From Bacteroidales bacterium (GTDB lineage Bacteria; Bacteroidota; Bacteroidia; Bacteroidales; VadinHA17), in contig JBGSLG010000082.1 in assembly GCA_041740815.1 (NCBI GenBank), forward strand, positions 5,990 to 69,989: 64,000 nt of DNA, written 5' to 3'. The translations under genes were made by a program, and so were the position numbers. Positions 34,219-55,752 of this stretch are shown here, in pieces. Position 1 is the stretch's first letter. The number at the start of each line of letters is the position of its first letter. The notes beneath the pieces were generated by a model. It saw only the letters and a program-made list of their open reading frames with translations, was not told the origin of the DNA and made no database searches.

Positions 34219-34263
34219 GCTGAATCCGTTTCCCTGTAACTATCTCACCGGAGGGCCGCGCAA

Positions 34264-34342
34264 AAGCTTGCAGCCCAACACAGTGCATATTGGGCCACAG
34301 AAGCGCCAGGAATAAGCTTGCAGCCCAACACAGTGCATATTG
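34264..34342. repeat. Two 30-nt direct repeats, each containing a short hairpin
   Basis: aagcttgcagcccaacacagtgcatattgg occurs at 34264..34293 and 34313..34342. Copy 1 has the stem gcccaa/ttgggc; copy 2 ends ttggac. Confidence 0.8.
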
Positions 34343-34471
34343 GACCAGCTTCCTGAAACTCATAATCAGACTCCGGATAAACATTATTGATTTTTTGTCC
34401 ATATTTGTATAGCCTTTGTCAGTATTATAATTCACAACCCTTGAGCCTGGAGGTTTTCAAGATAATACCTG

Positions 34472-39323: not shown

Positions 39324-39409
39324 ACTGAACCAGTTGCTGAAACCATTTACTCAAACCAGTTGCTCAAACCAGTTACTGAAACCAGCTGTTGATTCCAGTT
39401 ACTGAACCA
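39324..39409 (-). repeat. Imperfect 13-nt tandem repeat (minus-strand unit CTGGTTTSAGYAA, about 6-7 copies) between GH20 and GH30
   Basis: The plus strand reads ctgaaccagttg ctgaaaccatttact caaaccagttg ctcaaaccagttact gaaaccagctgtt gattccagttact gaacca. The last copy contains the GH20 stop codon. Confidence 0.75.
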
Positions 39410-41077: not shown

Positions 41078-41243
41078 CATTTAAAATCAGTTTCACCCGC
41101 CCCCAATCCCCCGGGAAGACTTTCAAAGGCATGTATCAGGTCATCAATCTCCGGTATTGTGTTTTCGCGGAGGATATTTCCATTGCAGACGGTACGCTCC
41201 ATCCTATTCTTTATACCGCCCCGCAGGAATCACGGAATATTTA

Positions 41244-42854: not shown

Positions 42855-42862
42855 TATATTTG
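42855..42862 (+). promoter_or_regulatory. -7 box (TAtaTTTG) for the GNAT-like gene
   Basis: tatatttg lies 22 nt upstream of the ATG at 42884. Confidence 0.45.
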
Positions 42863-42883
42863 TTTTCAGCCAATCTCACTCAC

Positions 42884-44005
42884 ATGAGCGAAATTACTGT
42901 TAAGGAAGTCGTTTCACGACGAGACCTCCGTCACTTCATCTATCTGCCTGAAAAGGTACACAGGGATGAACCGGACTGGTTGCCGCCTATTTACATGGAT
43001 GAGTGGGAACTGTATGACAGAAAGAAGAACAAATCTTTTGGCTATGCCGATGCCCTGCTGCTGCTTGCCTTCAGGGACGGTAAACCAGCAGGCAGGATCA
43101 TGGGTCTGATCAACCGGAGATATAACGAGATTAACAGCGAGGCACACGGCAGGTTCTGTTTCATGGAGTGTTATAACGACAGGGAGGTTTTTCATGCTCT
43201 CATAAGCAGGATAGAGGATTGGGCCCGGCAGAACGGCATGAACAAACTGGTTGGTCCGCTTGGTTTCTCGGACAAGGATCCGCAGGGATTCCAGATCGAG
43301 GGTTTTGAGTACCCGCAGTTCATCACCAGCGCCAACAATTCCCCATACATGGTGAACCTGATTGAAAATGAGGGATATGCCAGGAAGATAGACCTGGTGA
43401 ACTACCTCGGCGATATGCCGAAGGAGTTTCCTGTTGTTTATGAAAGGGTGCTTGAAAGAATAAACAGATCCCAGGAATTTACAATTACCGAGTTCCCGAC
43501 AAAGAAGACACTCAGGCCATATATACTCCGTGTACTTGAACTTATGAATGACACCTTTTCAGAGATATACGGCTTCGTGCCGCTCAACGACAAGGAAAAG
43601 GCGGATTTTGCGGCACGTTACATGCCTATAATCGATCCGAAATTTATCAAGGTGGTGGAGAAGGATGGGCAGCTGATCGGGTTTGCCATAGGATTGCCTG
43701 ACCTCAGTGCCGGCATAAAAGCCTGCCGGGGAAGACTGTTGCCCTTCGGGATCCTCAAGGTCCTAAGGGAATCAAAAAGGTCAAAGAAACTGATAATGAT
43801 GCTCGGCGGGGTCAGGAAGGAATTCAGGGGCAAGGGTATTGATGTGCTGATGGGAGTCAAAATACTCCAGGATGGCATCAAAAGCAGAATGGAAAGCCTC
43901 GACAGCCATCTCGTGCTTGAAGATAACCTGAGGATGAGAGGTGAATACGAAAGGATCGGCTGCAAGGTTGTCAAGAAATTCAGGATCTACCAGAAGGATC
44001 TGTAA
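42884..44005 (+). CDS. GNAT-fold (acyl-CoA N-acyltransferase-like) protein, uncharacterised subfamily
   Basis: About 373 aa from the internal ATG: MSEITVKEVVSRRDLRHFIYLPEKVHRDEPDWLPPIYMDEWELYD... Later LGGVRKEFRGKGIDVLM resembles the acetyl-CoA loop R/Q-x-x-G-x-G/A. Confidence 0.6.
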   Translation: MSEITVKEVVSRRDLRHFIYLPEKVHRDEPDWLPPIYMDEWELYDRKKNKSFGYADALLLLAFRDGKPAGRIMGLINRRYNEINSEAHGRFCFMECYNDREVFHALISRIEDWARQNGMNKLVGPLGFSDKDPQGFQIEGFEYPQFITSANNSPYMVNLIENEGYARKIDLVNYLGDMPKEFPVVYERVLERINRSQEFTITEFPTKKTLRPYILRVLELMNDTFSEIYGFVPLNDKEKADFAARYMPIIDPKFIKVVEKDGQLIGFAIGLPDLSAGIKACRGRLLPFGILKVLRESKRSKKLIMMLGGVRKEFRGKGIDVLMGVKILQDGIKSRMESLDSHLVLEDNLRMRGEYERIGCKVVKKFRIYQKDL

Positions 44006-44011
44006 CCACTG

Positions 44012-44246
44012 TCAGTCCTCAGTCCTCAGCCGGCAGTCTTCAGTCCTAGAAGGCAGTAGGCAGTAGGCAATAGGCAGTAGTGAAAATTAAGAATTAAGAA
44101 TTGATAATCAGCCTATTAGATTAACTGACCGCAAGACTGCACGACTGCAAGACCTTCAGACTTCAGACCTTTTGACCTTCAGACTCAGTTCTTCTGGCTT
44201 CGACCGCAGAACCGCAGGACCGCAGAACCGCAAGACCCCGACAGGT
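44012..44246. repeat. Left copy of the heptamer-rich non-coding element, inverted relative to 53057..53222
   Basis: Runs of cagtcct, ggcagta, aattaag, gcaagac, cttcaga and ccgcaga units. The core 44059..44153 matches the reverse complement of 53089..53190. By eye there are about 5 substitutions plus one extra aattaag unit. Confidence 0.85.
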
Positions 44247-47200
44247 CTATTCCCATGTGATGACTGAAATCCTCTTCTTCCCGTCCATTTTAACAGTCAG
44301 GCTGTTTTTAAACTGAACATGCGTGACATAATTGCCCTTTCTGAGAACCTTCTGTTTCTTCAGAATGTCCCAGTCTATCACTGAGTTCTTCTGATTATGC
44401 TGAACGGAGAAATAGCCGACATTCATTGAGGTCACGTTGTGAAAAAAGTGCGAACCGGATGAGGCATCGAGAGGAAAATCCTCAAGGCTGGTCTCAATAA
44501 TTATTTTTGCATTGCATATCTGCGGCCATGTGACCGGTATCCCAATCCACCTGTCGCGTGTTCCCCATCTCCCCGGACCCAGCAGAATATACTGCCTGCC
44601 GCTGCTGATCATCTCATCATTGAACATGTCTATCTCGGCTGCTATCTCAAGCGTCCGGGACTTGTCAAAAAGATCCCTGTCAACATAAATCACATCCTGA
44701 ATGTTACTGATCATACCATTCCCCATGCTCTTTTCAGTATATAACAGAATATGGGATTTGTCGATCTCGTCCATATTCACGTCATAGTCGAGTGTTGCTC
44801 CGATAATCGGTTTGATTTGAAGCAGGTAGAACGAAGCCTTATAATCACTGTCTCGTGTCAGGTCAATTGCAAACTCGATCTCCACCGGCGTGCCAAGCGC
44901 CTCCTTGACAATATCCAGAATCTCTGTCAGCGATTTGGCCAGAGGGATGTAATCGTACTTCAGGATATCGGCAAAATTGATGATACGGGGGCCCGCCTTG
45001 TCTATTCCCGGAAAAATAGTCTTGCTCTCTGCCGAATAGACCGATGCGCAATGTCTGATTACCCCGTGGCGTTCAGCGTCCTCAATGCTTAGACGGACCA
45101 ACCCTGCCGTATCTCCCTCAAGCAGGTTAAACTCCTTCTTATTGAGGTCAACGGCAAAAAGCTCGACCTGCGAATTAAGATACTGATCCTTGGGAGAATT
45201 ATTTTCAAGGTTGGGGTATTTGGGTGAGAACCGGAACGCCTTCTCGCCTTCAACCACATATGTCCCCAGTCCGACAGCAAGAACCGCAAACCCGTCCTCC
45301 GGCTGCATATGGCCGTACGGGTAATAGTTGTACGACTGGCTGACGCCGCTGATATGAGGATAATAGGTGTTTTCATGCTGCTCACCCACAACCTCCTGGA
45401 TTATGACTGCCATCTTCTCTTCTTCAATCTTGTAGTTGATGGCGCTGATATATCCCCGGGCAGTGTCAGAGTATATTGATGCATATACCAGCTTGATGGC
45501 ATCGGTTAATTGGGTCAGCCGGATTTCAATATCATCATTGATATTCGGAAGAAGATAGGTTTCAAAAATCCCGGCAAAAGGCTGCATAAGTGAGTCTTCA
45601 AACAACCCTGATGAGCGGACGGCCAAAGGCCTGGATATCTTACCGAGAATGATGCGCAGTTTTTTAACCAGGGCAGCTGAAAGGCTTCCTTCTATAAACA
45701 ACTTTTTAATTGTCTCGTAACTGGTTTCTGAAAAGACCCTGTTTCTGAGCTTGTTGTTATCCAGAAAATCCTCAAACTCATTGGTGCCGATGATAAATGT
45801 GCGGGGTGCCCTGATGTTAATGCCGGGTACATAAAGCGAGATATCAAAATTGTAGATCAGCGTGTGAATGAATGCCAGTCCGCGCCCTTTCCCTCCGAGC
45901 GCCCCGGGAGATAATTGAATTATATTGCTCTCCTCCAGGATCAGTGTCTCGTCAAACTCTACAATTTTACCCTTGTTTTTCTCATACTTGAGCCTCTTAA
46001 CCACGGCAACCAGGTAGTCTCTCAGCGACTCGGCATTCTTGAAATCGCTGATTTTTTTGGGCGCTATCTCCCTGGCGAGCTGAATCTCACCGCGTGCTGT
46101 GAGCCACAGTGAGAAATGGTTCTTCCGGGCGTGGTACAACAGGGTTTCTATAGGGATGGAATGAAGCTGTTCCTCAAACTCATTCATGTTCTTGGCTGTA
46201 CCAATGGTCCTGCCCGTCTCATCCTTGTAGATGAAATCGCCAAACCCCAGGTGGTAACTGATGAAATTCCTTATGTCCTGCGCCAGTGTATCTGAATTCT
46301 TGTAGATAAACACGCAGTTCAGCTCCTTTGCCTGCTTCTCGTTCTCCCAGTCAGAAGACTGAATGATTGTCGGAAGATCAGGGATTTCGGATTTTATGGC
46401 CCTGACAAGCTCAAACCCGGCGTTTTCGTCGAATTTTTCATCCTTCTGAAACTTCACATCGCTTATCAGGCAGAGAAAGAATTCCTTGTATTTGTTAAAA
46501 ATCCTGATTGCCTCTTCATAATTTGATGCCATCAAAATCTTGGGTCGAACCCGCAGGCGAAGCACCTTGTACAGCTCGTCCATTGTGCTGACATCCTCGA
46601 TGATTCGCCTGGTCTGCTCCATCACACAGTGATAAAGCAACGGAATATAGCGTGAGTAATACTTGGCCGAATCCTCCACAAGCAGTATTATCCGGCTGTA
46701 GCCTACCTTGGTATCGTTTTCAACATTCACATAATCTTCCAGTTGCTTTACCATGGCAAAAAATATCCTTGAATCACCGTTCCATACAAAAACGTTGTCG
46801 ATAAGATTAGTTCGTTTCTGTTCGTCCTGAAAGAATGCTATGTATTGATTGTTATTAAGCAGCAGGTAGATGGGGATATACTTATAAAGTGCCTTCAGCC
46901 TTTTGGATATCTCCATCGGGGCCTTTTTATCTACGCCCACCATGATTATGATCAGGTCAAAGTGCTTCAGGTAGAGTTTCTCGAGGGCCTCCTCAAATGA
47001 TGAGACGCCTGTGATGCGCGGTATGGTTGTTAAATTCAGCTGGTAGTATACGCCCAGGATATAGTCAGAAAATTTGCCTTCGCGCTCAAGACTGTACGCA
47101 TCATACAGGTTTGAGATGATAAGAATCTCCTTAACCTTGAATTTCATGAGATCATGAAAGATGTCCCGGTCGTAGTTATTCTTCTCCAGGAAATTCTGAA

Positions 47201-48506
47201 GCAGCTTCCGCTTGTTCAGAAGAAAATCCTTGGCCGCCTCGAACTTCTGCTTCAGCTCTTCATCGGTCCGGTACTTCCTGATGGCAACCTCGCCCTGCAG
47301 GGAATTTAAGTAGTTACATATCAGCGAAGAAATATTATTTATCAGGTCCCTCTCTTCCTTCATAAACGGACCTTCATGCATATCCGGAAAATCTTTTGTA
47401 TAGTATACCTCAACTTCCCCGATTTTGTCGTCAATCGTCAGAAAGGGCTGCCGCTGCCGCCACTTGGTTACCACAAAACCCGGCGAGGTGTAGTCCTGCC
47501 CGTCATAGCTGATCCGGGCTACGGTGCTTTCCGGATATTGCCAGGCATCAGGCATGATATAAGCAATCTGCTTCAGTGCATTCTCAATCGATTTTTCAGC
47601 CTGGAGAATTGATGTGGTCTGATTGATACATGATAACTCCTTCAGACGCTCCGTCTTCTCATACATGATCTTCTTCATGCCCATCTCCGTGGCGGTGACG
47701 GTATCAAGTCCGTAGATCAGGTTGATATAGCCCGATATGAGGTTTGCCATGTTGCTTAACAACACATCCTCGGATTTAAGGTAGCTATCCATATCTGGAA
47801 TCGGGAAGCCATCCAGATAGTAGAATTCGATCCAGCCCTGATTATTGTCCATGGTCTTGAATTCTTCCTTCAGGCACCATTTGTATTCGTCATACGCCTT
47901 ATCGGAACTGAGATATTCCTTCCCGCCGTAAACGATCCTTGCAACAGCATAATCAGGGTAACGCCAGGTTTTGGGCATATCCAGGCAGATCCGTGAAAGG
48001 GTATCGTCAATATTTTTCTCCTCGCTTAGCTTCCGTGACTGCTCCAGCCTTGCCGAGGCCTCTTCCCCATATTCTTCCTTCTGTTCGGCTGCCAGGCTTG
48101 AATTCAGATAGTTGCACAGAATAGTTGCAATATTCTCAAGCAGCTGCCTCTCCTCATTTAAAAACGGACCCTCATCCGCCCTGGGAAACTGCTTTGTATA
48201 GAAAACATCAATGGCCCCCCATTTTTTGTCATGCGTTTCAAATATCTGCTTCTGGATCCAGCGTGACTCCCTGAAAGTGTCAGGCCGGTACTCTCTGCCG
48301 TCATATTTAATACGTGCATATGCATATTCGGAAAACTGCCACGCCTTTGGAATCTCCTTTACTATCTCAAGCAGCGTTTCCTCAACACTGATTTTTTTAC
48401 TGATAATCTTGTTAATTGTGTAGATGATGGATAATCCCTTCTGACTCTGTATTTTCTCAGCCAGAAGTTTCTGCATCTCCTTTTGCCATTTGGATCTGTC
48501 TTCCAT
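44247..48506 (-). CDS. Giant signalling protein A: 3 x sensor-like repeat, pseudo-receiver, receiver (REC), PPDK_N-like ATP-grasp, conserved C-terminal domain
   Basis: 1419 aa. REC: RIILLVEDS...CLISDVKF...PTIIQSS...FIYKNS. ATP-grasp / PEP-pyruvate-binding-type motifs: GALGGKGRGLAF, PLAVRSSGLFEDSLMQPFAGIFETY, MAVIIQEVV, PVEIEFAID...FYLLQIKPI. C-terminus: LLGPGRWGTRDRWIGIPVTWPQI...SSGSHFFHNV. Confidence 0.8.
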   Translation of the reverse strand: MEDRSKWQKEMQKLLAEKIQSQKGLSIIYTINKIISKKISVEETLLEIVKEIPKAWQFSEYAYARIKYDGREYRPDTFRESRWIQKQIFETHDKKWGAIDVFYTKQFPRADEGPFLNEERQLLENIATILCNYLNSSLAAEQKEEYGEEASARLEQSRKLSEEKNIDDTLSRICLDMPKTWRYPDYAVARIVYGGKEYLSSDKAYDEYKWCLKEEFKTMDNNQGWIEFYYLDGFPIPDMDSYLKSEDVLLSNMANLISGYINLIYGLDTVTATEMGMKKIMYEKTERLKELSCINQTTSILQAEKSIENALKQIAYIMPDAWQYPESTVARISYDGQDYTSPGFVVTKWRQRQPFLTIDDKIGEVEVYYTKDFPDMHEGPFMKEERDLINNISSLICNYLNSLQGEVAIRKYRTDEELKQKFEAAKDFLLNKRKLLQNFLEKNNYDRDIFHDLMKFKVKEILIISNLYDAYSLEREGKFSDYILGVYYQLNLTTIPRITGVSSFEEALEKLYLKHFDLIIIMVGVDKKAPMEISKRLKALYKYIPIYLLLNNNQYIAFFQDEQKRTNLIDNVFVWNGDSRIFFAMVKQLEDYVNVENDTKVGYSRIILLVEDSAKYYSRYIPLLYHCVMEQTRRIIEDVSTMDELYKVLRLRVRPKILMASNYEEAIRIFNKYKEFFLCLISDVKFQKDEKFDENAGFELVRAIKSEIPDLPTIIQSSDWENEKQAKELNCVFIYKNSDTLAQDIRNFISYHLGFGDFIYKDETGRTIGTAKNMNEFEEQLHSIPIETLLYHARKNHFSLWLTARGEIQLAREIAPKKISDFKNAESLRDYLVAVVKRLKYEKNKGKIVEFDETLILEESNIIQLSPGALGGKGRGLAFIHTLIYNFDISLYVPGINIRAPRTFIIGTNEFEDFLDNNKLRNRVFSETSYETIKKLFIEGSLSAALVKKLRIILGKISRPLAVRSSGLFEDSLMQPFAGIFETYLLPNINDDIEIRLTQLTDAIKLVYASIYSDTARGYISAINYKIEEEKMAVIIQEVVGEQHENTYYPHISGVSQSYNYYPYGHMQPEDGFAVLAVGLGTYVVEGEKAFRFSPKYPNLENNSPKDQYLNSQVELFAVDLNKKEFNLLEGDTAGLVRLSIEDAERHGVIRHCASVYSAESKTIFPGIDKAGPRIINFADILKYDYIPLAKSLTEILDIVKEALGTPVEIEFAIDLTRDSDYKASFYLLQIKPIIGATLDYDVNMDEIDKSHILLYTEKSMGNGMISNIQDVIYVDRDLFDKSRTLEIAAEIDMFNDEMISSGRQYILLGPGRWGTRDRWIGIPVTWPQICNAKIIIETSLEDFPLDASSGSHFFHNVTSMNVGYFSVQHNQKNSVIDWDILKKQKVLRKGNYVTHVQFKNSLTVKMDGKKRISVITWE
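47301..48386 (-). repeat. Three tandem copies of a roughly 95-aa sensor-like module in the N-terminus of protein A
   Basis: aa 41-135, 167-262 and 305-402. Each has P-x-x-W-x-[FY]-[SP]-[ED]-[YS]-x-x-A-R-I-x-Y-[DG]-G, then G-x-[IV]-[DE]-[VF]-[FY]-Y, then [EL]-x-[SE]-E-[ERD]-x-L-[LI]-x-N-[IM]-[AS]-x-[IL]-[IL]-x-x-Y-[LI]-N. Confidence 0.7.
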
Positions 48507-50092: not shown

Positions 50093-53056
50093 ATGTACAA
50101 GCTCAGAAAAAACATTTTCAGGGAAACTTCTTTTGAGCTTCTGATGCAAAAAAGAGTTCAGTACGTGCTGCTGATCTGCAGCAGCTATGATGCATTCATC
50201 ATGGAGGAGGACGGTAAGATTGATGAAAAGGTCTTCAATGATTATGTGTCATTCAACCTGCGTTACCCTCCCCGGTTTATACATGTCACTTCAGGCGAAA
50301 AAGCCATGGAGGTACTGAGCCGCAGGCAGATAGACCTGGTAATTAATATGCTGAGCATCAGTGATCAGGATCCGTTTGAGCTCTCCCTGAACATCAAGAA
50401 AACCTATCCTGAAAAGCCAATCGTAATACTTGCTCCCGACTCCCGGGAAGTTACCCACAGAATAAACAGCGAAGATCTCACATCCATTGACTATGTTTTC
50501 AGCTGGCCGGGAAACACCGACATACTCCTCCCGATTATAAGCCTGATAGAGGATAAACAGAATGTGGACGAGGACAGCAAATATGAGGGAGTACAGTCAA
50601 TCATGCTGGTGGAAGGCTCGTTCAGGATGGCTTCCGTCTCCCTCCGCCACCTGTACTCAATTATACTTGAACAGTCACGCGAATATATGACCGAGGGCCT
50701 CAATGAGCATCAGAAATTTATGCAGATGCGCGGAAGACCAAAGATCCTCCTTGCTACCGGCTATGATGAAGCACAACGTCTGTTCGAAATACATAAATCG
50801 CGTCTCCTGGGTGTCATAGCAGATGTGGACATTAAAAATGAAAAAACGGACGCCTCCGGAATAATCGGCGATTTTATCAGGCAGATAAAGGATTATGACC
50901 CGAACATTCCCGTAATAATACAATCTGCCGACCAGGCAAACGAAAAATATGCAGGAGAACAGGGAGACGCATTTATTAATTTCAGTTCCAGATCACTGCC
51001 CCTCGATCTGAAAACAGTGCTGAAGAAACACTGTTCATTTGGAGATTTCATTTTTACAGATCCTGATACAGGCCGGGAGATAGCGAGGGTTTCAGACCTT
51101 CAGAACTTCCAGCGCAGGCTGTTTGATATACCTGATGATTCCTTTCGTTTCCACCTGTCGAGAAACCATCTTTCAAAATGGCTCTACGCCCGCGCACTCT
51201 TTTCACTGGCTGAGTTCATAAAAGAGGTAAGCATTGACGATTTTGCCAGCATCGACCAGGCCCGACGCTTCATCTTTGACACTATCGCCAACTTCAGGCT
51301 CAACAAGGGACACGGTATCATTGCCGATTTTTACCGCGAACACTTTGATGAATATCTTACATTCACCCGGATCGGTGCGGGATCAATGGGAGGAAAAGCC
51401 CGTGGCCTGGCCTTCCTGGATTATATCATTAAACAAAATCCGTATTTCGAAAGCTTTGAGGATACTGTGGTGTCGATCCCGCGAACAGTGGTGCTCAGTA
51501 CTGATGTGTTTGACGAATTCATGGCGCAGAACAACCTGTACTCTATTGGCCTGTCTGACGCCGGCGACAAGGAAATTCTTGATGCTTTCGTAAAGGCGCA
51601 GCTCCCAATGCGCATTCACAAGGACCTGTTCGTCTTCATCTCAATTATAAGCGGACCGGTCGCAATACGGTCTTCGAGCCTGCTTGAGGATTCTCATTTT
51701 CAGCCCTTCGCCGGGGTATATTCGACTTACATGCTCCCAAAAGCTGAGGATGATGCCCTCATGCTGGAGTTATTGAGTACCGGGATAAAAAGTGTTTTTG
51801 CCTCCGTTTTCTTCAAGGGAAGCAAAGATTACATGAAGGCTACAGATAACCTCATAGAGGAAGAAAAAATGGGTGTCGTACTCCAGGAGGTATGCGGACA
51901 GCAATATGAAAACCGGTTCTATCCAACCATCTCAGGGGTTGCAAGATCAATTAACTTTTACCCTATCGAACCCGAAAAGTCTGAAGACGGATTTGTCAGC
52001 CTGGCATTTGGCCTTGGCAAATACATTGTTGACGGCGGTATCTCTCTCAGGTTCTCGCCAAAATACCCCGCGAAGATCATCCAGTTGTCTGATACAAAAA
52101 TGGCCCTCCGCGAGACACAGCAGGAATTCTACGCTCTCGATCTCAACCCGGCAAGCTTTGTTCCCAGTACCGACGATACCGTTAACCTGCTTAAGCTGAA
52201 GGTAAGCGATGCCGAAAATGACGGGTCACTGAAATTCGTTGCCTCCACCTACGATTACCAGGACGACATGCTCAGAGATGATCCCATGGAGGGAGGAAGG
52301 AGAGTAATTACCTTCTCCAAAATCCTGAAGTATGACCTGTTCCCCCTTTCTGAGATTCTTAAGACGATTCTTGAGATCGGGCAACAGCAGCTTAATAATC
52401 CTGTAGAAATAGAATTTGCAGTAAATATTGACCCTGCAAGGAAAAAGCCTAACCTGTTCAACCTTCTTCAAATCAGGCCTATAGTCGAAATATTTGAAAC
52501 CGTAAAATTCAAGCTTGAAAATATTCCGCAGAGCGAAACAGTCATCTCATCCCAGTCAGCTCTCGGAAACGGAACGATAGACGGAATATGTGACCTCATC
52601 TATGTCAGAACTGAAAACTTCAATGCTTCAAAAAACCTTGATGTCGCCGTGAAACTTAATGAACTGAATGACGGTTTCCTCAGTGACGATAAGCATTATA
52701 TCCTGGTCGGTCCGGGAAGATGGGGGTCAAGTGATCCCTGGCTGGGTATTCCCATTAAATGGCCCCAGATCTCCGCAGCACGGCTGATAGTTGAATCGGG
52801 ACTCGAGAATTACCGTATCGATCCCAGCCAGGGTACTCATTTTTTCCAGAACCTCACCGCATTCAGGGTTGGATACTTTACCGTTAACCCGTTCATGAGT
52901 GACGGATTTGTCGATTATGACTTCCTCTCCTCGGCTGAAACCGTTTACGAGGATGCTTTATTACGGCATGTGAGATTCCCGGAGCCGCTTACAATCAGGA
53001 TCGATGGCCGGAAGAAACTTGGAGTTGTGATGAAGCCAACAGATAGAACGGACTGA
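50093..53056 (+). CDS. Giant signalling protein B: pseudo-receiver, receiver-like, PPDK_N-like ATP-grasp, conserved C-terminal domain (paralog of A without the sensor repeats)
   Basis: About 987 aa from the ATG at 50093 (MYKLRKNIF..). VQYVLLICSSYDAFIMEEDG. IMLVEGS...GVIADVDI...PVIIQSA. GAGSMGGKARGLAF, PVAIRSSSLLEDSHFQPFAGVYSTY, MGVVLQEVC, PVEIEFAVN...FNLLQIRPI. LVGPGRWGSSDPWLGIPIKWPQI...SQGTHFFQNL. Confidence 0.8.
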   Translation: MYKLRKNIFRETSFELLMQKRVQYVLLICSSYDAFIMEEDGKIDEKVFNDYVSFNLRYPPRFIHVTSGEKAMEVLSRRQIDLVINMLSISDQDPFELSLNIKKTYPEKPIVILAPDSREVTHRINSEDLTSIDYVFSWPGNTDILLPIISLIEDKQNVDEDSKYEGVQSIMLVEGSFRMASVSLRHLYSIILEQSREYMTEGLNEHQKFMQMRGRPKILLATGYDEAQRLFEIHKSRLLGVIADVDIKNEKTDASGIIGDFIRQIKDYDPNIPVIIQSADQANEKYAGEQGDAFINFSSRSLPLDLKTVLKKHCSFGDFIFTDPDTGREIARVSDLQNFQRRLFDIPDDSFRFHLSRNHLSKWLYARALFSLAEFIKEVSIDDFASIDQARRFIFDTIANFRLNKGHGIIADFYREHFDEYLTFTRIGAGSMGGKARGLAFLDYIIKQNPYFESFEDTVVSIPRTVVLSTDVFDEFMAQNNLYSIGLSDAGDKEILDAFVKAQLPMRIHKDLFVFISIISGPVAIRSSSLLEDSHFQPFAGVYSTYMLPKAEDDALMLELLSTGIKSVFASVFFKGSKDYMKATDNLIEEEKMGVVLQEVCGQQYENRFYPTISGVARSINFYPIEPEKSEDGFVSLAFGLGKYIVDGGISLRFSPKYPAKIIQLSDTKMALRETQQEFYALDLNPASFVPSTDDTVNLLKLKVSDAENDGSLKFVASTYDYQDDMLRDDPMEGGRRVITFSKILKYDLFPLSEILKTILEIGQQQLNNPVEIEFAVNIDPARKKPNLFNLLQIRPIVEIFETVKFKLENIPQSETVISSQSALGNGTIDGICDLIYVRTENFNASKNLDVAVKLNELNDGFLSDDKHYILVGPGRWGSSDPWLGIPIKWPQISAARLIVESGLENYRIDPSQGTHFFQNLTAFRVGYFTVNPFMSDGFVDYDFLSSAETVYEDALLRHVRFPEPLTIRIDGRKKLGVVMKPTDRTD

Positions 53057-53222
53057 AGGTCTGAAGACCTGAAGATGAAGGTCTTGCTGTCTTGCAGTCC
53101 TGCTGTCTTGCTGTCAGTTAATCTAAGAGGCTGATTATCAATTCTTAATTCTTAATTCTTAATTTTCACTACTGCCTATTGCCCACTGCCTGGGTAAGAC
53201 TGCCGATTGCCGACTGAGGACT
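53057..53222. repeat. Right copy of the heptamer-rich non-coding element, inverted relative to 44012..44246
   Basis: It fills the whole convergent intergenic gap between protein B and the T9SS cargo gene. Its reverse complement aligns with 44019..44175. Confidence 0.85.
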
Positions 53223-55752
53223 AATGAAGGAACGTCACATCTCCTACCATGTCAAAATACTCGCCGTCGGCATATCTTCCCGAGGCTTTCCACACATAGA
53301 CCCCCTGGGCTGCCAGGTTCCCGGCGCCAAAATAGCCGTCCCACCCTTTTGCCAGATCATGGCTCTCATAGATAAGCACACCCCACCTGTTGAAAATCTG
53401 TAACTTGTATTCAATCACATTCTCGAAAAATGGCCTGAACACATTATCCATCCCGGCATATACACCCTCACTCCATTGTCCTCCGGTAGGCCCTGTCTCG
53501 TTCCACTTGAAAACATTGGGATACTTAATGGTTCCTTCCTTCCATTCCACAACCACTGGCGTCTCCAATACCGCTGAGTCAATACAGCCATCAGCGGTTG
53601 CCACAGTCAGGGAGACAGTATATGATCCCGGACTCTCATACTTGTGATACGGATTCTCTTCGGTGGAGGTCTCCCCGTCTCCGAACCTCCACAACCACGT
53701 GTGAGCAAAGTAAGAGTAGCTGTAAAACACCACTATCTGTTCATTGTTAACCACATTCGTGGGATAAGCGTCAAAGATTGCCGAGGGATTCTGGTAAACG
53801 TTGATGATCCCGTTACGCGTTGACTCTCCTGCAATGTTGTGGACGGTCAGTTTAATTATGTAACTCCCCGGAACGAAATAGGTATGCACCGGGTTCTCCT
53901 CTGACGAATACTGTTTGTCGCCAAAATCCCATGTATAGCTCTCAGCGTGTATGCTTTTGTTTATGAACTGAACTGTCAGAGGTGCGCAGCCTGATGTTGC
54001 GCCCTCGAAGTCCGCCACAGGCAGGGGCGGCATGATGACAATTATCTGAATACTCTGTTGTGCTTCACAGCCCCAGCTCTCGGGAGGTATCGAGTATGTC
54101 AGGGTATGCGTGCCCAGACCGGCCACGGCCGGATCAAACACGTTGCCCGTAAGACCCGTCCCTGACCATATGCCTCCTGTAGGATAGGCAGTCAGTATAA
54201 CAGGGGGACCGTTGAGAAACGCTGTACCCGGACCGTCTAAAATTATGGATGGGAGAGCCATCACTGTTATCACTGCCGTGTCAGCAGCCATGCAATCGGT
54301 GTTCAGAATCTCATACTTGATTATATGGTTCCCTACTCCTGCCAGCGTCGGGTTGAACCGGTCACCCACAACCCCGCGGCCGGACCAGATACCCCCAAGG
54401 TCATGGGCGGTAAGTGTTATAGCCGGACTGTCTACGCAGAGGGTGTCAACAGGTGTGATGGTGGCATCCGGAGTGGCAACCGTGATGATCGCCTGGTCTG
54501 AATCGGAACAACCGTTGGCATCTGTTATCGAGTATGTTACGGTATGATTTCCGGCTCCGGCAACAGCAGGATAAAAAATGTTTCCAGTGACTCCCGTGCC
54601 GGACCAGACCCCGCCCGGATCACGGGCCTGGAGTACAATCACCGGGTCAGTTGAACAGGCAATCCCGGAGGTGATTATGGTGGCATCGGGTATGGGAGCA
54701 ACAGTGATGACTGTCTGGTCAGTATCACTGCACCCGTCACCGTTAGTGACCGCATACCTGACAGTGTGGTTGCCCGGGCCGGCAACGGAAGGATCGAAGA
54801 TATTTCCTGTAACTCCTGCACCGGACCAGGTTCCGCCCGGGTCATGAGCCGTCAGGGTTACCGGTGGCGCGTTGGCGCACATGGTGTCAACAGGTGTTAT
54901 GGTGGCATCAGGATAGGGCACAATCAGAATTCGTGCGGTGGTTTCTACCGGCGGATGGTCACCGTTGATGCGGTCTCGCGGCCCGCCGGGAATATTCGGA
55001 TCATCATAGGGGTTACAATAGTTCCAGTTCCGGAGGGTCACTTCAAAATACTGGCCGATCAGTTTGTCATTTGCCACGTATATTACGTCTGACCAGACTC
55101 CTGACCCGGTTACAGGACCTGTAAGGGTAATGACATTATCCCGGTAGGGAAAGATCCTTGTTCTTCCGTCAACGGTTACAGGCGCCCCGGTCATGGTTAT
55201 GTCAGTACCGTAGATCCACTGTATCCATCGGGTATTGACATTGGGGTTATCTCTCTCTTGCGGAGGGACGCAGTTGAACTGGGTCAGGTCCTGAAACCTG
55301 ACGTTGGCACTGTTTCCAAAGCAAATAGGATAGACTACAGGATTGATGTGCATGCGTCCCCCGTTATGATCATCGTCGTCCCAGACGGTCACTATCTGTT
55401 CCTGTGATGAAGAGGTGCAGAGTACCCCGTTGACTACCAGGGTAGCCTGCGGATGGTAATTACAGATATTGCCGGCTGAGGTATAGGTCACTGTTGCCGT
55501 CGCCTCAAAAATGCCTGGCCCTGTTTCAGTGGCAGGCACCGTTACTATTGTGCCGTTGTTCCAGTCGTACCTTATATGGACGGGATAGCCGTCATCATTG
55601 ACACCGGTATAGCTGACATTCCATGTCGCCGTCACAGGAGAGCATAATCTATCCGGGGTGATATTGTTAGCCTTTGAGAATATAGAGCAATTCTGCCCGG
55701 ATATGCTTGATGATAAGAGTATAAAAATTATATATGGGATCCATTTCTCCAT
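53221..55752 (-). CDS. T9SS type B (gliding-motility-associated C-terminal domain) cargo protein with Ig-like repeats and PKD domains
   Basis: 843 aa. Signal peptide ..SISG|Q. Four repeats of about 73 aa (PDATITPVDT.C...P.TLTAHDPGG.WSG.GVTGN.F.P.VAG.GNHTV.Y). PKD-like CAPLTVQFINKS...YTWDFGD. C-terminal FNRWGVLIYES...GWDGY......GVYVW...DGEYFDMVGDVTFLH. Confidence 0.8.
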   Translation of the reverse strand: MEKWIPYIIFILLSSSISGQNCSIFSKANNITPDRLCSPVTATWNVSYTGVNDDGYPVHIRYDWNNGTIVTVPATETGPGIFEATATVTYTSAGNICNYHPQATLVVNGVLCTSSSQEQIVTVWDDDDHNGGRMHINPVVYPICFGNSANVRFQDLTQFNCVPPQERDNPNVNTRWIQWIYGTDITMTGAPVTVDGRTRIFPYRDNVITLTGPVTGSGVWSDVIYVANDKLIGQYFEVTLRNWNYCNPYDDPNIPGGPRDRINGDHPPVETTARILIVPYPDATITPVDTMCANAPPVTLTAHDPGGTWSGAGVTGNIFDPSVAGPGNHTVRYAVTNGDGCSDTDQTVITVAPIPDATIITSGIACSTDPVIVLQARDPGGVWSGTGVTGNIFYPAVAGAGNHTVTYSITDANGCSDSDQAIITVATPDATITPVDTLCVDSPAITLTAHDLGGIWSGRGVVGDRFNPTLAGVGNHIIKYEILNTDCMAADTAVITVMALPSIILDGPGTAFLNGPPVILTAYPTGGIWSGTGLTGNVFDPAVAGLGTHTLTYSIPPESWGCEAQQSIQIIVIMPPLPVADFEGATSGCAPLTVQFINKSIHAESYTWDFGDKQYSSEENPVHTYFVPGSYIIKLTVHNIAGESTRNGIINVYQNPSAIFDAYPTNVVNNEQIVVFYSYSYFAHTWLWRFGDGETSTEENPYHKYESPGSYTVSLTVATADGCIDSAVLETPVVVEWKEGTIKYPNVFKWNETGPTGGQWSEGVYAGMDNVFRPFFENVIEYKLQIFNRWGVLIYESHDLAKGWDGYFGAGNLAAQGVYVWKASGRYADGEYFDMVGDVTFLH
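54028..54912 (-). repeat. Four tandem coding repeats of about 219-225 nt (Ig-like modules) in the T9SS cargo gene
   Basis: aa 281-575. DNA-level similarity is visible, e.g. ggaccagaccccgcccggatcacgggc / ggaccaggttccgcccgggtcatgagc. Confidence 0.65.

Follow-up and report, generated by a model that had tools for sequence, protein, structure and literature searches.

Why should the non-coding DNA behind two genes resemble each other more closely than the genes themselves do? This question is raised by a stretch of 64,000 nucleotides from a VadinHA17-lineage Bacteroidales bacterium (contig JBGSLG010000082.1 of assembly GCA_041740815.1, positions 5,990 to 69,989; the window from here on), in which gdhA lies between the genes of two paralogous proteins, A and B, each of which is followed by a convergent intergenic gap filled with the same repeat-rich element. 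A first-pass annotation of this locus had offered a functional 3' element, a dispersed intergenic repeat that landed twice, or a substrate for inversion of the gdhA module as possible explanations. Our analysis suggests that the two stretches are probably young copies of one mosaic short-tandem-repeat element, a member of a dispersed and fast-changing class in uncultured Bacteroidales, and that their similarity reflects recent copying of tolerated repeat DNA.

As the first-pass annotation had described, the two copies, 8.9 kb apart, are inverted relative to each other and read alike relative to A and B; they read equally alike relative to the partner gene across each gap, a GNAT-family gene behind A and a PKD/CHU_C gene behind B, both gaps being bounded by the stops of a convergent pair. 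A repeat search of the window recovered them as inverted arms of 103 nt (44051–44153 and 53089–53191) with 86% ungapped identity, and a gapped local alignment spans 200 columns with 154 matches, corresponding to 89.5% identity outside gaps. From the AATTAAG block through the first GCAAGAC unit, 50 of 52 bases are equal, and the longest exact stretch measures 37 nt within the window (44066–44102) and 45 nt in the near-identical strain L001. Proteins A and B, in contrast, share 36% of their residues over 981 aligned positions, and the last 303 coding bases of their genes are 55% identical; the gap flanks are thus far more alike than the genes, as had been estimated by eye. The copies differ more than the roughly five substitutions and one 7-nt unit first counted over ~95 nt, with the full alignment containing ~18 substitutions, a 7-nt unit, an 8-nt unit and smaller gaps. 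It nevertheless shows a colinear, non-repetitive core and not merely shared low-complexity heptamers: patterns of 31 and 35 nt drawn from this core match the window at these two sites alone, and had no match in any of 100 shuffles. A possible extension of the similarity by ~20 nt into the last codons of B is marginal (54 of 2000 shuffles score equally) and was not used to assign a direction of copying.

Using Tandem Repeats Finder (TRF) together with a unit-compression script, we resolved the element into blocks that follow one another in the order (TCAGTCC)n (GGCAGTA)n GTG (AATTAAG)n, a unique 31-nt centre, (NGCAAGAC)n and (CTTCAGAC)n. Copy A runs from a stop codon through (TCAGTCC)~5, (GGCAGTA)4, GTG, (AATTAAG)2.6, the centre AATTGATAATCAGCCTATTAGATTAACTGAC, (NGCAAGAC)3, (CTTCAGAC)~4, a spacer and (ACCGCAGA)~4 to the stop codon of A, while copy B has the same block order without the final (ACCGCAGA) block, its end units overlapping both stop codons. 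TRF detected period-7 and period-8 arrays of 2.6–5.1 copies at both sites, which places them among head-to-tail direct-repeat arrays (units of 5–11 nt, at least about three copies, non-coding). The earlier description of runs of 7-mers around an AT-rich centre holds for the build from repeat units, but not for the unit length throughout, as GCAAGACT, CTTCAGAC and ACCGCAGA are 8-mers. In the sense orientation, (GGCAGTA)n carries TAG in all three frames. We rejected a coding repeat, given stop codons in all sense-strand frames, and a CRISPR-like array, given units of 7–8 nt and no spacers.

The same gaps in close relatives show how quickly these sequences change. Strain L001 (contig_31062, 495 kb, of ENA assembly ERZ25039603), whose gdhA protein is identical to that of the window, is 99.4% identical to the window over 18.9 kb. 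Only five insertions or deletions separate the two over this length, and four of them (7, 7, 8 and 24 nt) lie within the two elements, or 2% of the sequence, showing that blocks lengthen and shorten by entire units (slippage) even between close strains. The closest relatives of protein B are found in named Bacteroidales metagenome-assembled genomes. Loci L006, L007, L008 and L129, with protein B about 83–85% identical to that of the window, preserve the order GH20, acyltransferase, CDP-alcohol transferase, GNAT> <A gdhA> B> <PKD/CHU_C, and L131 (protein B 81%) retains the A-gdhA-B module only, among other flanking genes. In L129, the A gap consists of 42 nt of CGCAAGAC and CTTCAGAC-like units, and the B and PKD genes overlap, as they also do in L007; the gaps of L006, L007 and L008 hold 7/8-nt arrays of other kinds. 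The B gap of L128, whose protein B is 96% identical, has the outer arrays seen in the window (tcagtcggcaatcggcagtcttacccaggcagtgggcaataggcag ... ccttc.gaccttt/cagaccttcag) but a different centre, made up of ATTTTCG/ATTGTCG units, GATTAAATCAAAATTCGCAAATCG and then ATCGCAA units. Since the outer arrays are shared while the centre is not, the centre is an exchangeable cassette, and that of the window a recent arrival. Blocks and centres therefore differ between orthologous loci of close relatives, with the gaps empty or different in L129, L007 and L128, and a flank conserved together with the paralogues finds no support: across protein B identities of 81–96%, the orthologous gaps hold other arrays, another centre or nothing.

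Beyond this locus, the class sits almost exclusively in intergenic DNA at the 3' ends of genes, usually with its GGCAGTA block in sense orientation directly behind a stop codon. The GGCAGTA-block pattern GGCARTAGGCARTAGTG was found at at least 119 loci in GTDB representative genomes. About 78 of the matches listed are from Bacteroidota, chiefly uncultured Bacteroidales, in which a single genome has as many as seven loci, and the others listed come from Planctomycetota (Thermoguttaceae), filamentous Cyanobacteria and other groups, so that the block is common to Bacteroidales, Planctomycetota and Cyanobacteria; nearly all of the listed matches are real arrays of at least three units. Among 86 listed Bacteroidota matches, 83 are intergenic, and the 67 with both neighbours called divide into 31 convergent, 31 co-directional and 5 divergent gaps. 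A same-strand open reading frame (ORF) of at least 100 codons ends between −60 and +40 nt from the array start in 63 of the 86, the stop often being the array's own TAG, and in the co-directional gaps the orientation relative to the upstream gene is sense for 22 arrays and antisense for 9. The carrier genes have unrelated functions. The remaining blocks recur as well: AATTAAG, NGCAAGAC and CTTCAGAC follow one another in the same order at unrelated loci (L015, L043, L119, L125, L126, L021, L087 and L110), which have the loosely conserved centre AAT.CAG...TTAGA in common.

How abundant such arrays are can be judged from 560 kb of sequence in which, at distances above 600 nt from any seed match, 39 additional 7/8-nt array regions were counted (~1 per 14 kb), a density that comes from genomes chosen for containing such arrays and is biased accordingly; by extrapolation, there would be hundreds of composite arrays per genome. 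The first-pass annotation had reasoned that occurrence at hundreds of unrelated intergenic sites would mark a generic repeat, which by this extrapolation applies to the class, whereas the exact 31-nt centre was found at these two sites only. Of the source genome, the 64-kb window was searched and contains two sites, and related genomes have several loci each. The exact centre (GATAATCAGCCTNTTAGATTAAC) had no match in GTDB representative genomes, JGI metagenomes or IMG/VR, implying that the source species lies outside those collections or that its assemblies break at the arrays. Indeed, short-read Logan contigs of the locus (L002–L005) end inside the arrays, which would explain why the centre is missing from short-read collections. 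The arrays are unlikely to be assembly artefacts, since long-read and short-read assemblies agree. With the same blocks behind unrelated genes in many genomes, a dispersed intergenic repeat that landed twice is the option of the first-pass annotation that fits best. Loci outside Bacteroidota (L010–L124) carry (GGCARTA)n-GTG arrays of at least three units in Thermoguttaceae, filamentous Cyanobacteria, Clostridia, Rhizobiales, Caulobacteraceae and Gemmatimonas, some with an inverted (TACTGCC)n partner; why the same heptamer should turn up in different phyla is not obvious.

The alternative centre of L128 proved to be widespread. L008 and L119 share it, L007 has it in the opposite orientation, and we refer to it as the type-2 cassette. 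A 19-nt piece of it matched 59 metagenome stretches, and the full 52-nt core AATTTTCGATTTCAGATTTTCGATTGTCGATTTAATCAAAATTCGCAAATCG was recovered in 22 distinct contexts spanning several genomes and metagenomes, identical in 9 of them and with one mismatch in a further 6 (15 of 22). The usual layout is a stop codon, (GGCAGTA)n, GTG or GAG, the core, (CAAATCG)n and (CTTCAGAC/TTTACGGAC)n, and 14 of the 22 contexts, a sample selected through the core rather than the array, have a same-strand ORF ending at most 260 nt upstream of the core. The cassette is an imperfect palindrome, with no Rfam match and no folding signal. The presence of this core at many loci shows that centres are conserved units, and the window centre is another such unit, of which two copies have been seen. 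Several loci also carry a recurring hairpin module, GGGCCGAGC..AATGACCCGGTGGGTCATT..AGCGAAGGAGCCAG.TTGCAGGG, between the GGCAGTA array and the type-2 core, and a second, related module with ATCCGCCAGCTGGCGGA was observed in L143, L171 and L019.

No structural signal was detected in the element itself. RNA folding of both strands of both copies gave no gain over shuffles (z −1.17 to +0.74), and the window centre folded alone was no more stable than its shuffles. The stable palindrome hairpin characteristic of repetitive extragenic palindromes (REP), bacterial interspersed mosaic elements (BIMEs) or REP doublets forming hairpins (REPINs) is missing from both copies, the only internal inverted matches being 8 and 11 nt long. 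A terminator scan found no G+C-rich stem-loop followed by a T run in either gap, and a promoter scan returned only weak sigma-70-like matches, a consensus not relevant to Bacteroidota promoters. At gathering scores, Rfam 15 matched neither the window nor any of 9 related loci, and with an E-value threshold the only match in the element was a spurious, sub-threshold lncRNA (E = 0.013). Terminal inverted repeats are also missing, since TCAGTCC and GGCAGTA on the left show no complementarity to GCAAGAC and CTTCAGAC on the right, and no target-site duplication is definable, with the element extending to both stop codons. The folding check suggested in the first-pass annotation therefore came out negative, and its reading of the flank as a terminator or structured RNA is unsupported by the folding z-scores, the terminator scan and Rfam alike. 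In summary, by its unit structure and its copy-number variation between close strains the element qualifies as a short tandem direct-repeat array, and it fails the tests for REP/BIME (palindrome), for miniature inverted-repeat transposable elements (MITEs; inverted ends) and for a terminator.

Because the blocks are dispersed, the orthologous gaps differ and the block lengths are unstable, we attribute the similarity of the two copies to recent copying and slippage, and not to conservation since the A/B duplication. The source would have been either of the two gaps or a third copy, and the transfer an insertion or a gene conversion mediated by the arrays in common. Selection since the duplication would then play no part in the similarity, nor would the element be linked specifically to gdhA or the PPDK_N paralogues. 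Most likely, it persists as tolerated, self-propagating repeat DNA in places where compact genomes permit insertions, with no cellular role. Where 3' gaps are tiny (convergent gaps in the window are mostly 0–42 nt), any tolerated insertion would abut a stop codon, and a sense GGCAGTA array, with its TAG in three frames, could take the place of a gene's final codons, which would account for both the position and the strand bias without invoking function.

Several points weigh against this interpretation. Recurrence of the exact centre is confined to these two sites, in a source genome represented by 64 kb, and the data do not distinguish a local exchange between the A and B gaps from the arrival of a mobile unit by insertion. 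Nor was a mobilising enzyme identified, the ORFs of the window not having been scanned for PF01797 (the REP-associated tyrosine transposase, RAYT, or Y1 transposase), and the element lacks the inverted ends and target duplication of a typical mobile unit. The arrays' preference for one strand, their position right against stop codons, the units recurring across species and the near-invariant 52-nt core all resemble constraint, and could reflect a function not foreseen by a purely selfish model; that stops in all frames produce the orientation bias is itself something we infer, and the density estimate draws on genomes picked for having arrays.

These same features give some weight to a functional alternative, which we consider unlikely. 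Unstructured sense arrays behind a stop codon could form a 3' untranslated region (3'-UTR) module, acting as a multi-site platform for a single-strand binding protein of the RRM, cold-shock or S1 type that sets mRNA stability, 3'-end formation or translation termination, with selection keeping units and cores while copy numbers drift. The placement of sense arrays behind stops, their excess over antisense arrays in co-directional gaps, the same layout in the core-chosen type-2 sample, the type-2 core with at most one mismatch in most contexts and the limited unit set recurring across species would all accord with such a module, as would folding no better than shuffles, which is expected of single-strand binding sites. 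Binding by S1, Csp or CsrA has also been proposed for heptamer repeats (MacGregor 2015, PMC4679880). On the other hand, close relatives lack the element or carry another cassette at orthologous loci, unit numbers differ between strains that are 99.4% identical, the carrier genes are functionally unrelated, no binding protein is known, and position and orientation are explicable by where insertions are tolerated. Somewhat less likely again, the mosaic elements might constitute an undescribed family of modular 3'-UTR elements in uncultured Bacteroidales, whose arrays and cores (52 nt and 31 nt) would be recognised by a dedicated protein, be it a regulator that binds RNA and decides the fate of mRNAs or a novel type of enzyme that inserts and swaps cassettes.

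Much less probable is a role as a recombination substrate, in which exchange between the inverted copies would flip the 9-kb A-gdhA-B module and the copies would be kept for this switch. Inversion is possible in principle, given two inverted copies with the long exact stretches described above, and a flip would presumably leave both gaps convergent and break no gene. Yet the module arrangement is identical in the window, in L001 and in the five relatives covering a junction (L006, L007, L008, L129 and L131), with no inverted arrangement among them; L128 reaches only the B end, running 191 nt into the gap short of the PKD gene, and does not show the arrangement. Moreover, relatives keep the module without the repeat pair, and no promoter-gene relationship would be changed by the flip, so that no switch function is apparent. 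Finally, a relic of the A/B duplication, in which selection or continuous gene conversion preserved a 3' element peculiar to the paralogues, for example a bidirectional terminator, would account for the shared orientation relative to A and B, for CTTCAGAC-type units beside the A or B stop in several relatives and for the marginal extension into the last codons of B, but is barely tenable and already largely refuted, as an identity of only 36% marks the duplication as old, the last coding bases have diverged, orthologous gaps lack the element or its centre, the same blocks stand behind unrelated genes elsewhere, and neither a hairpin or T-run terminator nor folding beyond shuffles was found.

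If the two copies are young repeats, the higher conservation of the flank compared with the adjacent genes is not a regulatory signal of the gdhA module, and an over-interpretation of this locus is removed. The elements matter in other respects: they fragment short-read (metagenome) assemblies, may remodel protein C-termini, vary between near-identical strains and could thus serve as typing markers, and could initiate genome rearrangements. What heptamer arrays do and how they spread has been a question ever since the cyanobacterial short tandemly repeated repetitive (STRR) sequences, and the stop-codon abutment, strand bias and invariant sister core provide concrete handles on this problem; the sense orientation directly behind stops and the near-invariance of the sister core across its 22 loci are what our interpretation leaves unexplained.

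Table 1 Features of the two element copies, neighbouring genes and related modules (window positions unless a locus is given).
Feature	Position	Strand	Basis or remark
Copy A, mosaic element filling the entire GNAT/protein A gap	44006..44246	+	Alignment, repeat search
Outer left block, (TCAGTCC)-type 7-nt array, ~5 units	44012..44047	+	TRF
(GGCAGTA)x4 array ending GTG; block common to at least 119 loci in other genomes	44051..44082	+	TRF, pattern search
(AATTAAG) 7-nt array, 2.6 units (copy B: 3.6)	44085..44102	+	TRF
Non-repetitive centre AATTGATAATCAGCCT[A/C]TTAGATTAACTGAC	44099..44129	+	Found only at the two window sites and the same two sites in L001
(NGCAAGAC) 8-nt array, 3 units	44130..44153	+	TRF
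(CTTCAGAC)-type 8-nt array; same units fill the 42-nt orthologous gap of L129	44154..44184	+	TRF, relatives
(ACCGCAGA) 8-nt array, copy A only; one unit fewer in L001; related GACCGCAG stretch in the same gap of L006	44203..44237	+	TRF
Copy B, filling the entire PKD/CHU_C-protein B gap; first and last units overlap both stops	53057..53220	-	Alignment, repeat search
Copy B (NGCAAGAC) array, 4.4 units; 24 nt longer in L001	53081..53115	-	TRF
Copy B centre, 30 of 31 bases as in copy A	53113..53143	-	Sequence comparison
Copy B (GGCARTA) array, GTG, (AATTAAG)x3.6	53140..53191	-	TRF
GNAT-family gene; copy A follows its stop in sense orientation	42860..44005	+	
Protein A, 1419 aa, PPDK_N domain and receiver-like region; context, outside the element	44247..48506	-	
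Protein B, 987 aa as called in L001, paralogue of A (36% identical); context	50093..53056	+	Alignment
PKD/CHU_C (type IX secretion signal) gene; TAG stop inside the first unit of copy B	53221..55752	-	
Type-2 cassette sites	L128:8782-8972; L008:3640-3745; L007:3554-3745; L119:1021-1118; metagenome loci L132-L187		
Hairpin module sites	L138:~1133-1224; L148; L007:3570-3660; L116 (reverse orientation)		

The genes around the two gaps show features of their own. Proteins A and B are alike in having a PPDK_N domain and a receiver-like region, while the N-terminal 430 residues of A, which by eye form three ~130-residue repeats (motif W.YP.Y.[VY]ARI.Y.G.EY), are missing from B; orthologues of A range from 1419 to 1603 residues. 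Orthologues of B (P0001–P0045) all share ...GVVMKP and then continue into unrelated tails of 2–21 residues. Adjacent repeat elements may have remodelled the 3' end of the B gene repeatedly, with which the divergent tails would be consistent. No exact protein records were found for B with its long TTG start, for the GNAT protein or for the PKD protein.

Other repeats were observed elsewhere in the window. A 13-nt tandem array (AACCAGTTACTCA, 5–6 units) occupies 39328–39405 between the GH30 and GH20 genes, reaching up to the GH20 stop, and is also present in L001. At 34246–34345, in a 253-nt intergenic gap, two tandem 50-nt copies are 84% identical, each with the hairpin GCCCAACACAGTGCATATTGGGC. 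Compared with window positions 41104–41154, L001 (2400–2495) carries an additional 41-nt tandem duplication at or just upstream of the acyltransferase gene start.

How does the element relate to known repeats? It resembles MITEs and REPINs in being short and non-coding, with many copies at unrelated intergenic sites, presence/absence variation and high similarity between copies, and the imperfect palindrome of the type-2 cassette adds to this likeness. Unlike MITEs, the window element has no terminal inverted repeats or recognisable target-site duplication, and no partner transposase was identified, RAYT not having been scanned for. With REP and BIMEs of enterobacteria it shares a mosaic build from few motifs, an intergenic location enriched at 3' ends and convergent gaps, and a high copy number. 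REP units, however, are imperfect palindromes that form hairpins and alternate in orientation, whereas the window element consists of direct repeats without a significant hairpin or inverted repeat.

The closest likeness is to heptamer arrays, i.e. the STRR sequences of heterocystous cyanobacteria, the "long simple sequence repeats" (Mrazek 2007) and the TAACTGA and mixed heptamer arrays of Beggiatoaceae, Cyanobacteria and Bacteroidetes (MacGregor 2015, PMC4679880), with which the element has in common intergenic 7-nt direct repeats, mixed units within a gap, variable length and absence in close relatives. Mixed heptamer direct repeats of this kind, intergenic and missing from the same gap in close relatives, have been reported from Cyanobacteria, Beggiatoaceae and several Bacteroidetes, where their function is unknown (MacGregor 2015, PMC4679880), and the (GGCARTA)n arrays that our pattern search recovered in filamentous cyanobacteria are a further point of likeness. 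In 'Maribeggiatoa', the TAACTGA repeats immediately precede start codons (PMC4679880), whereas arrays of the window class are mostly sense behind stops. The window element also differs from heptamer arrays in mixing 8-nt with 7-nt units and in its recurring block order around a unique centre. Its unit sequences are also different from those of STRR1–3. The small dispersed repeats (SDR) of Nostoc, reportedly described by Elhai and co-workers in 2008, are said to be very short conserved sequences nested in tandem heptamer arrays and present or absent at orthologous loci. In this they would resemble the swappable centre cassettes described here, although the host phylum and the sequences differ, and the cores are 31–52 nt here against a reported 21–27 nt. 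A literature search for the GGCAGTA array string GGCAGTAGGCAGTA found no paper. This family, its block order and its stop-codon placement thus appear to be undescribed, while the kind of element to which it belongs is already known.

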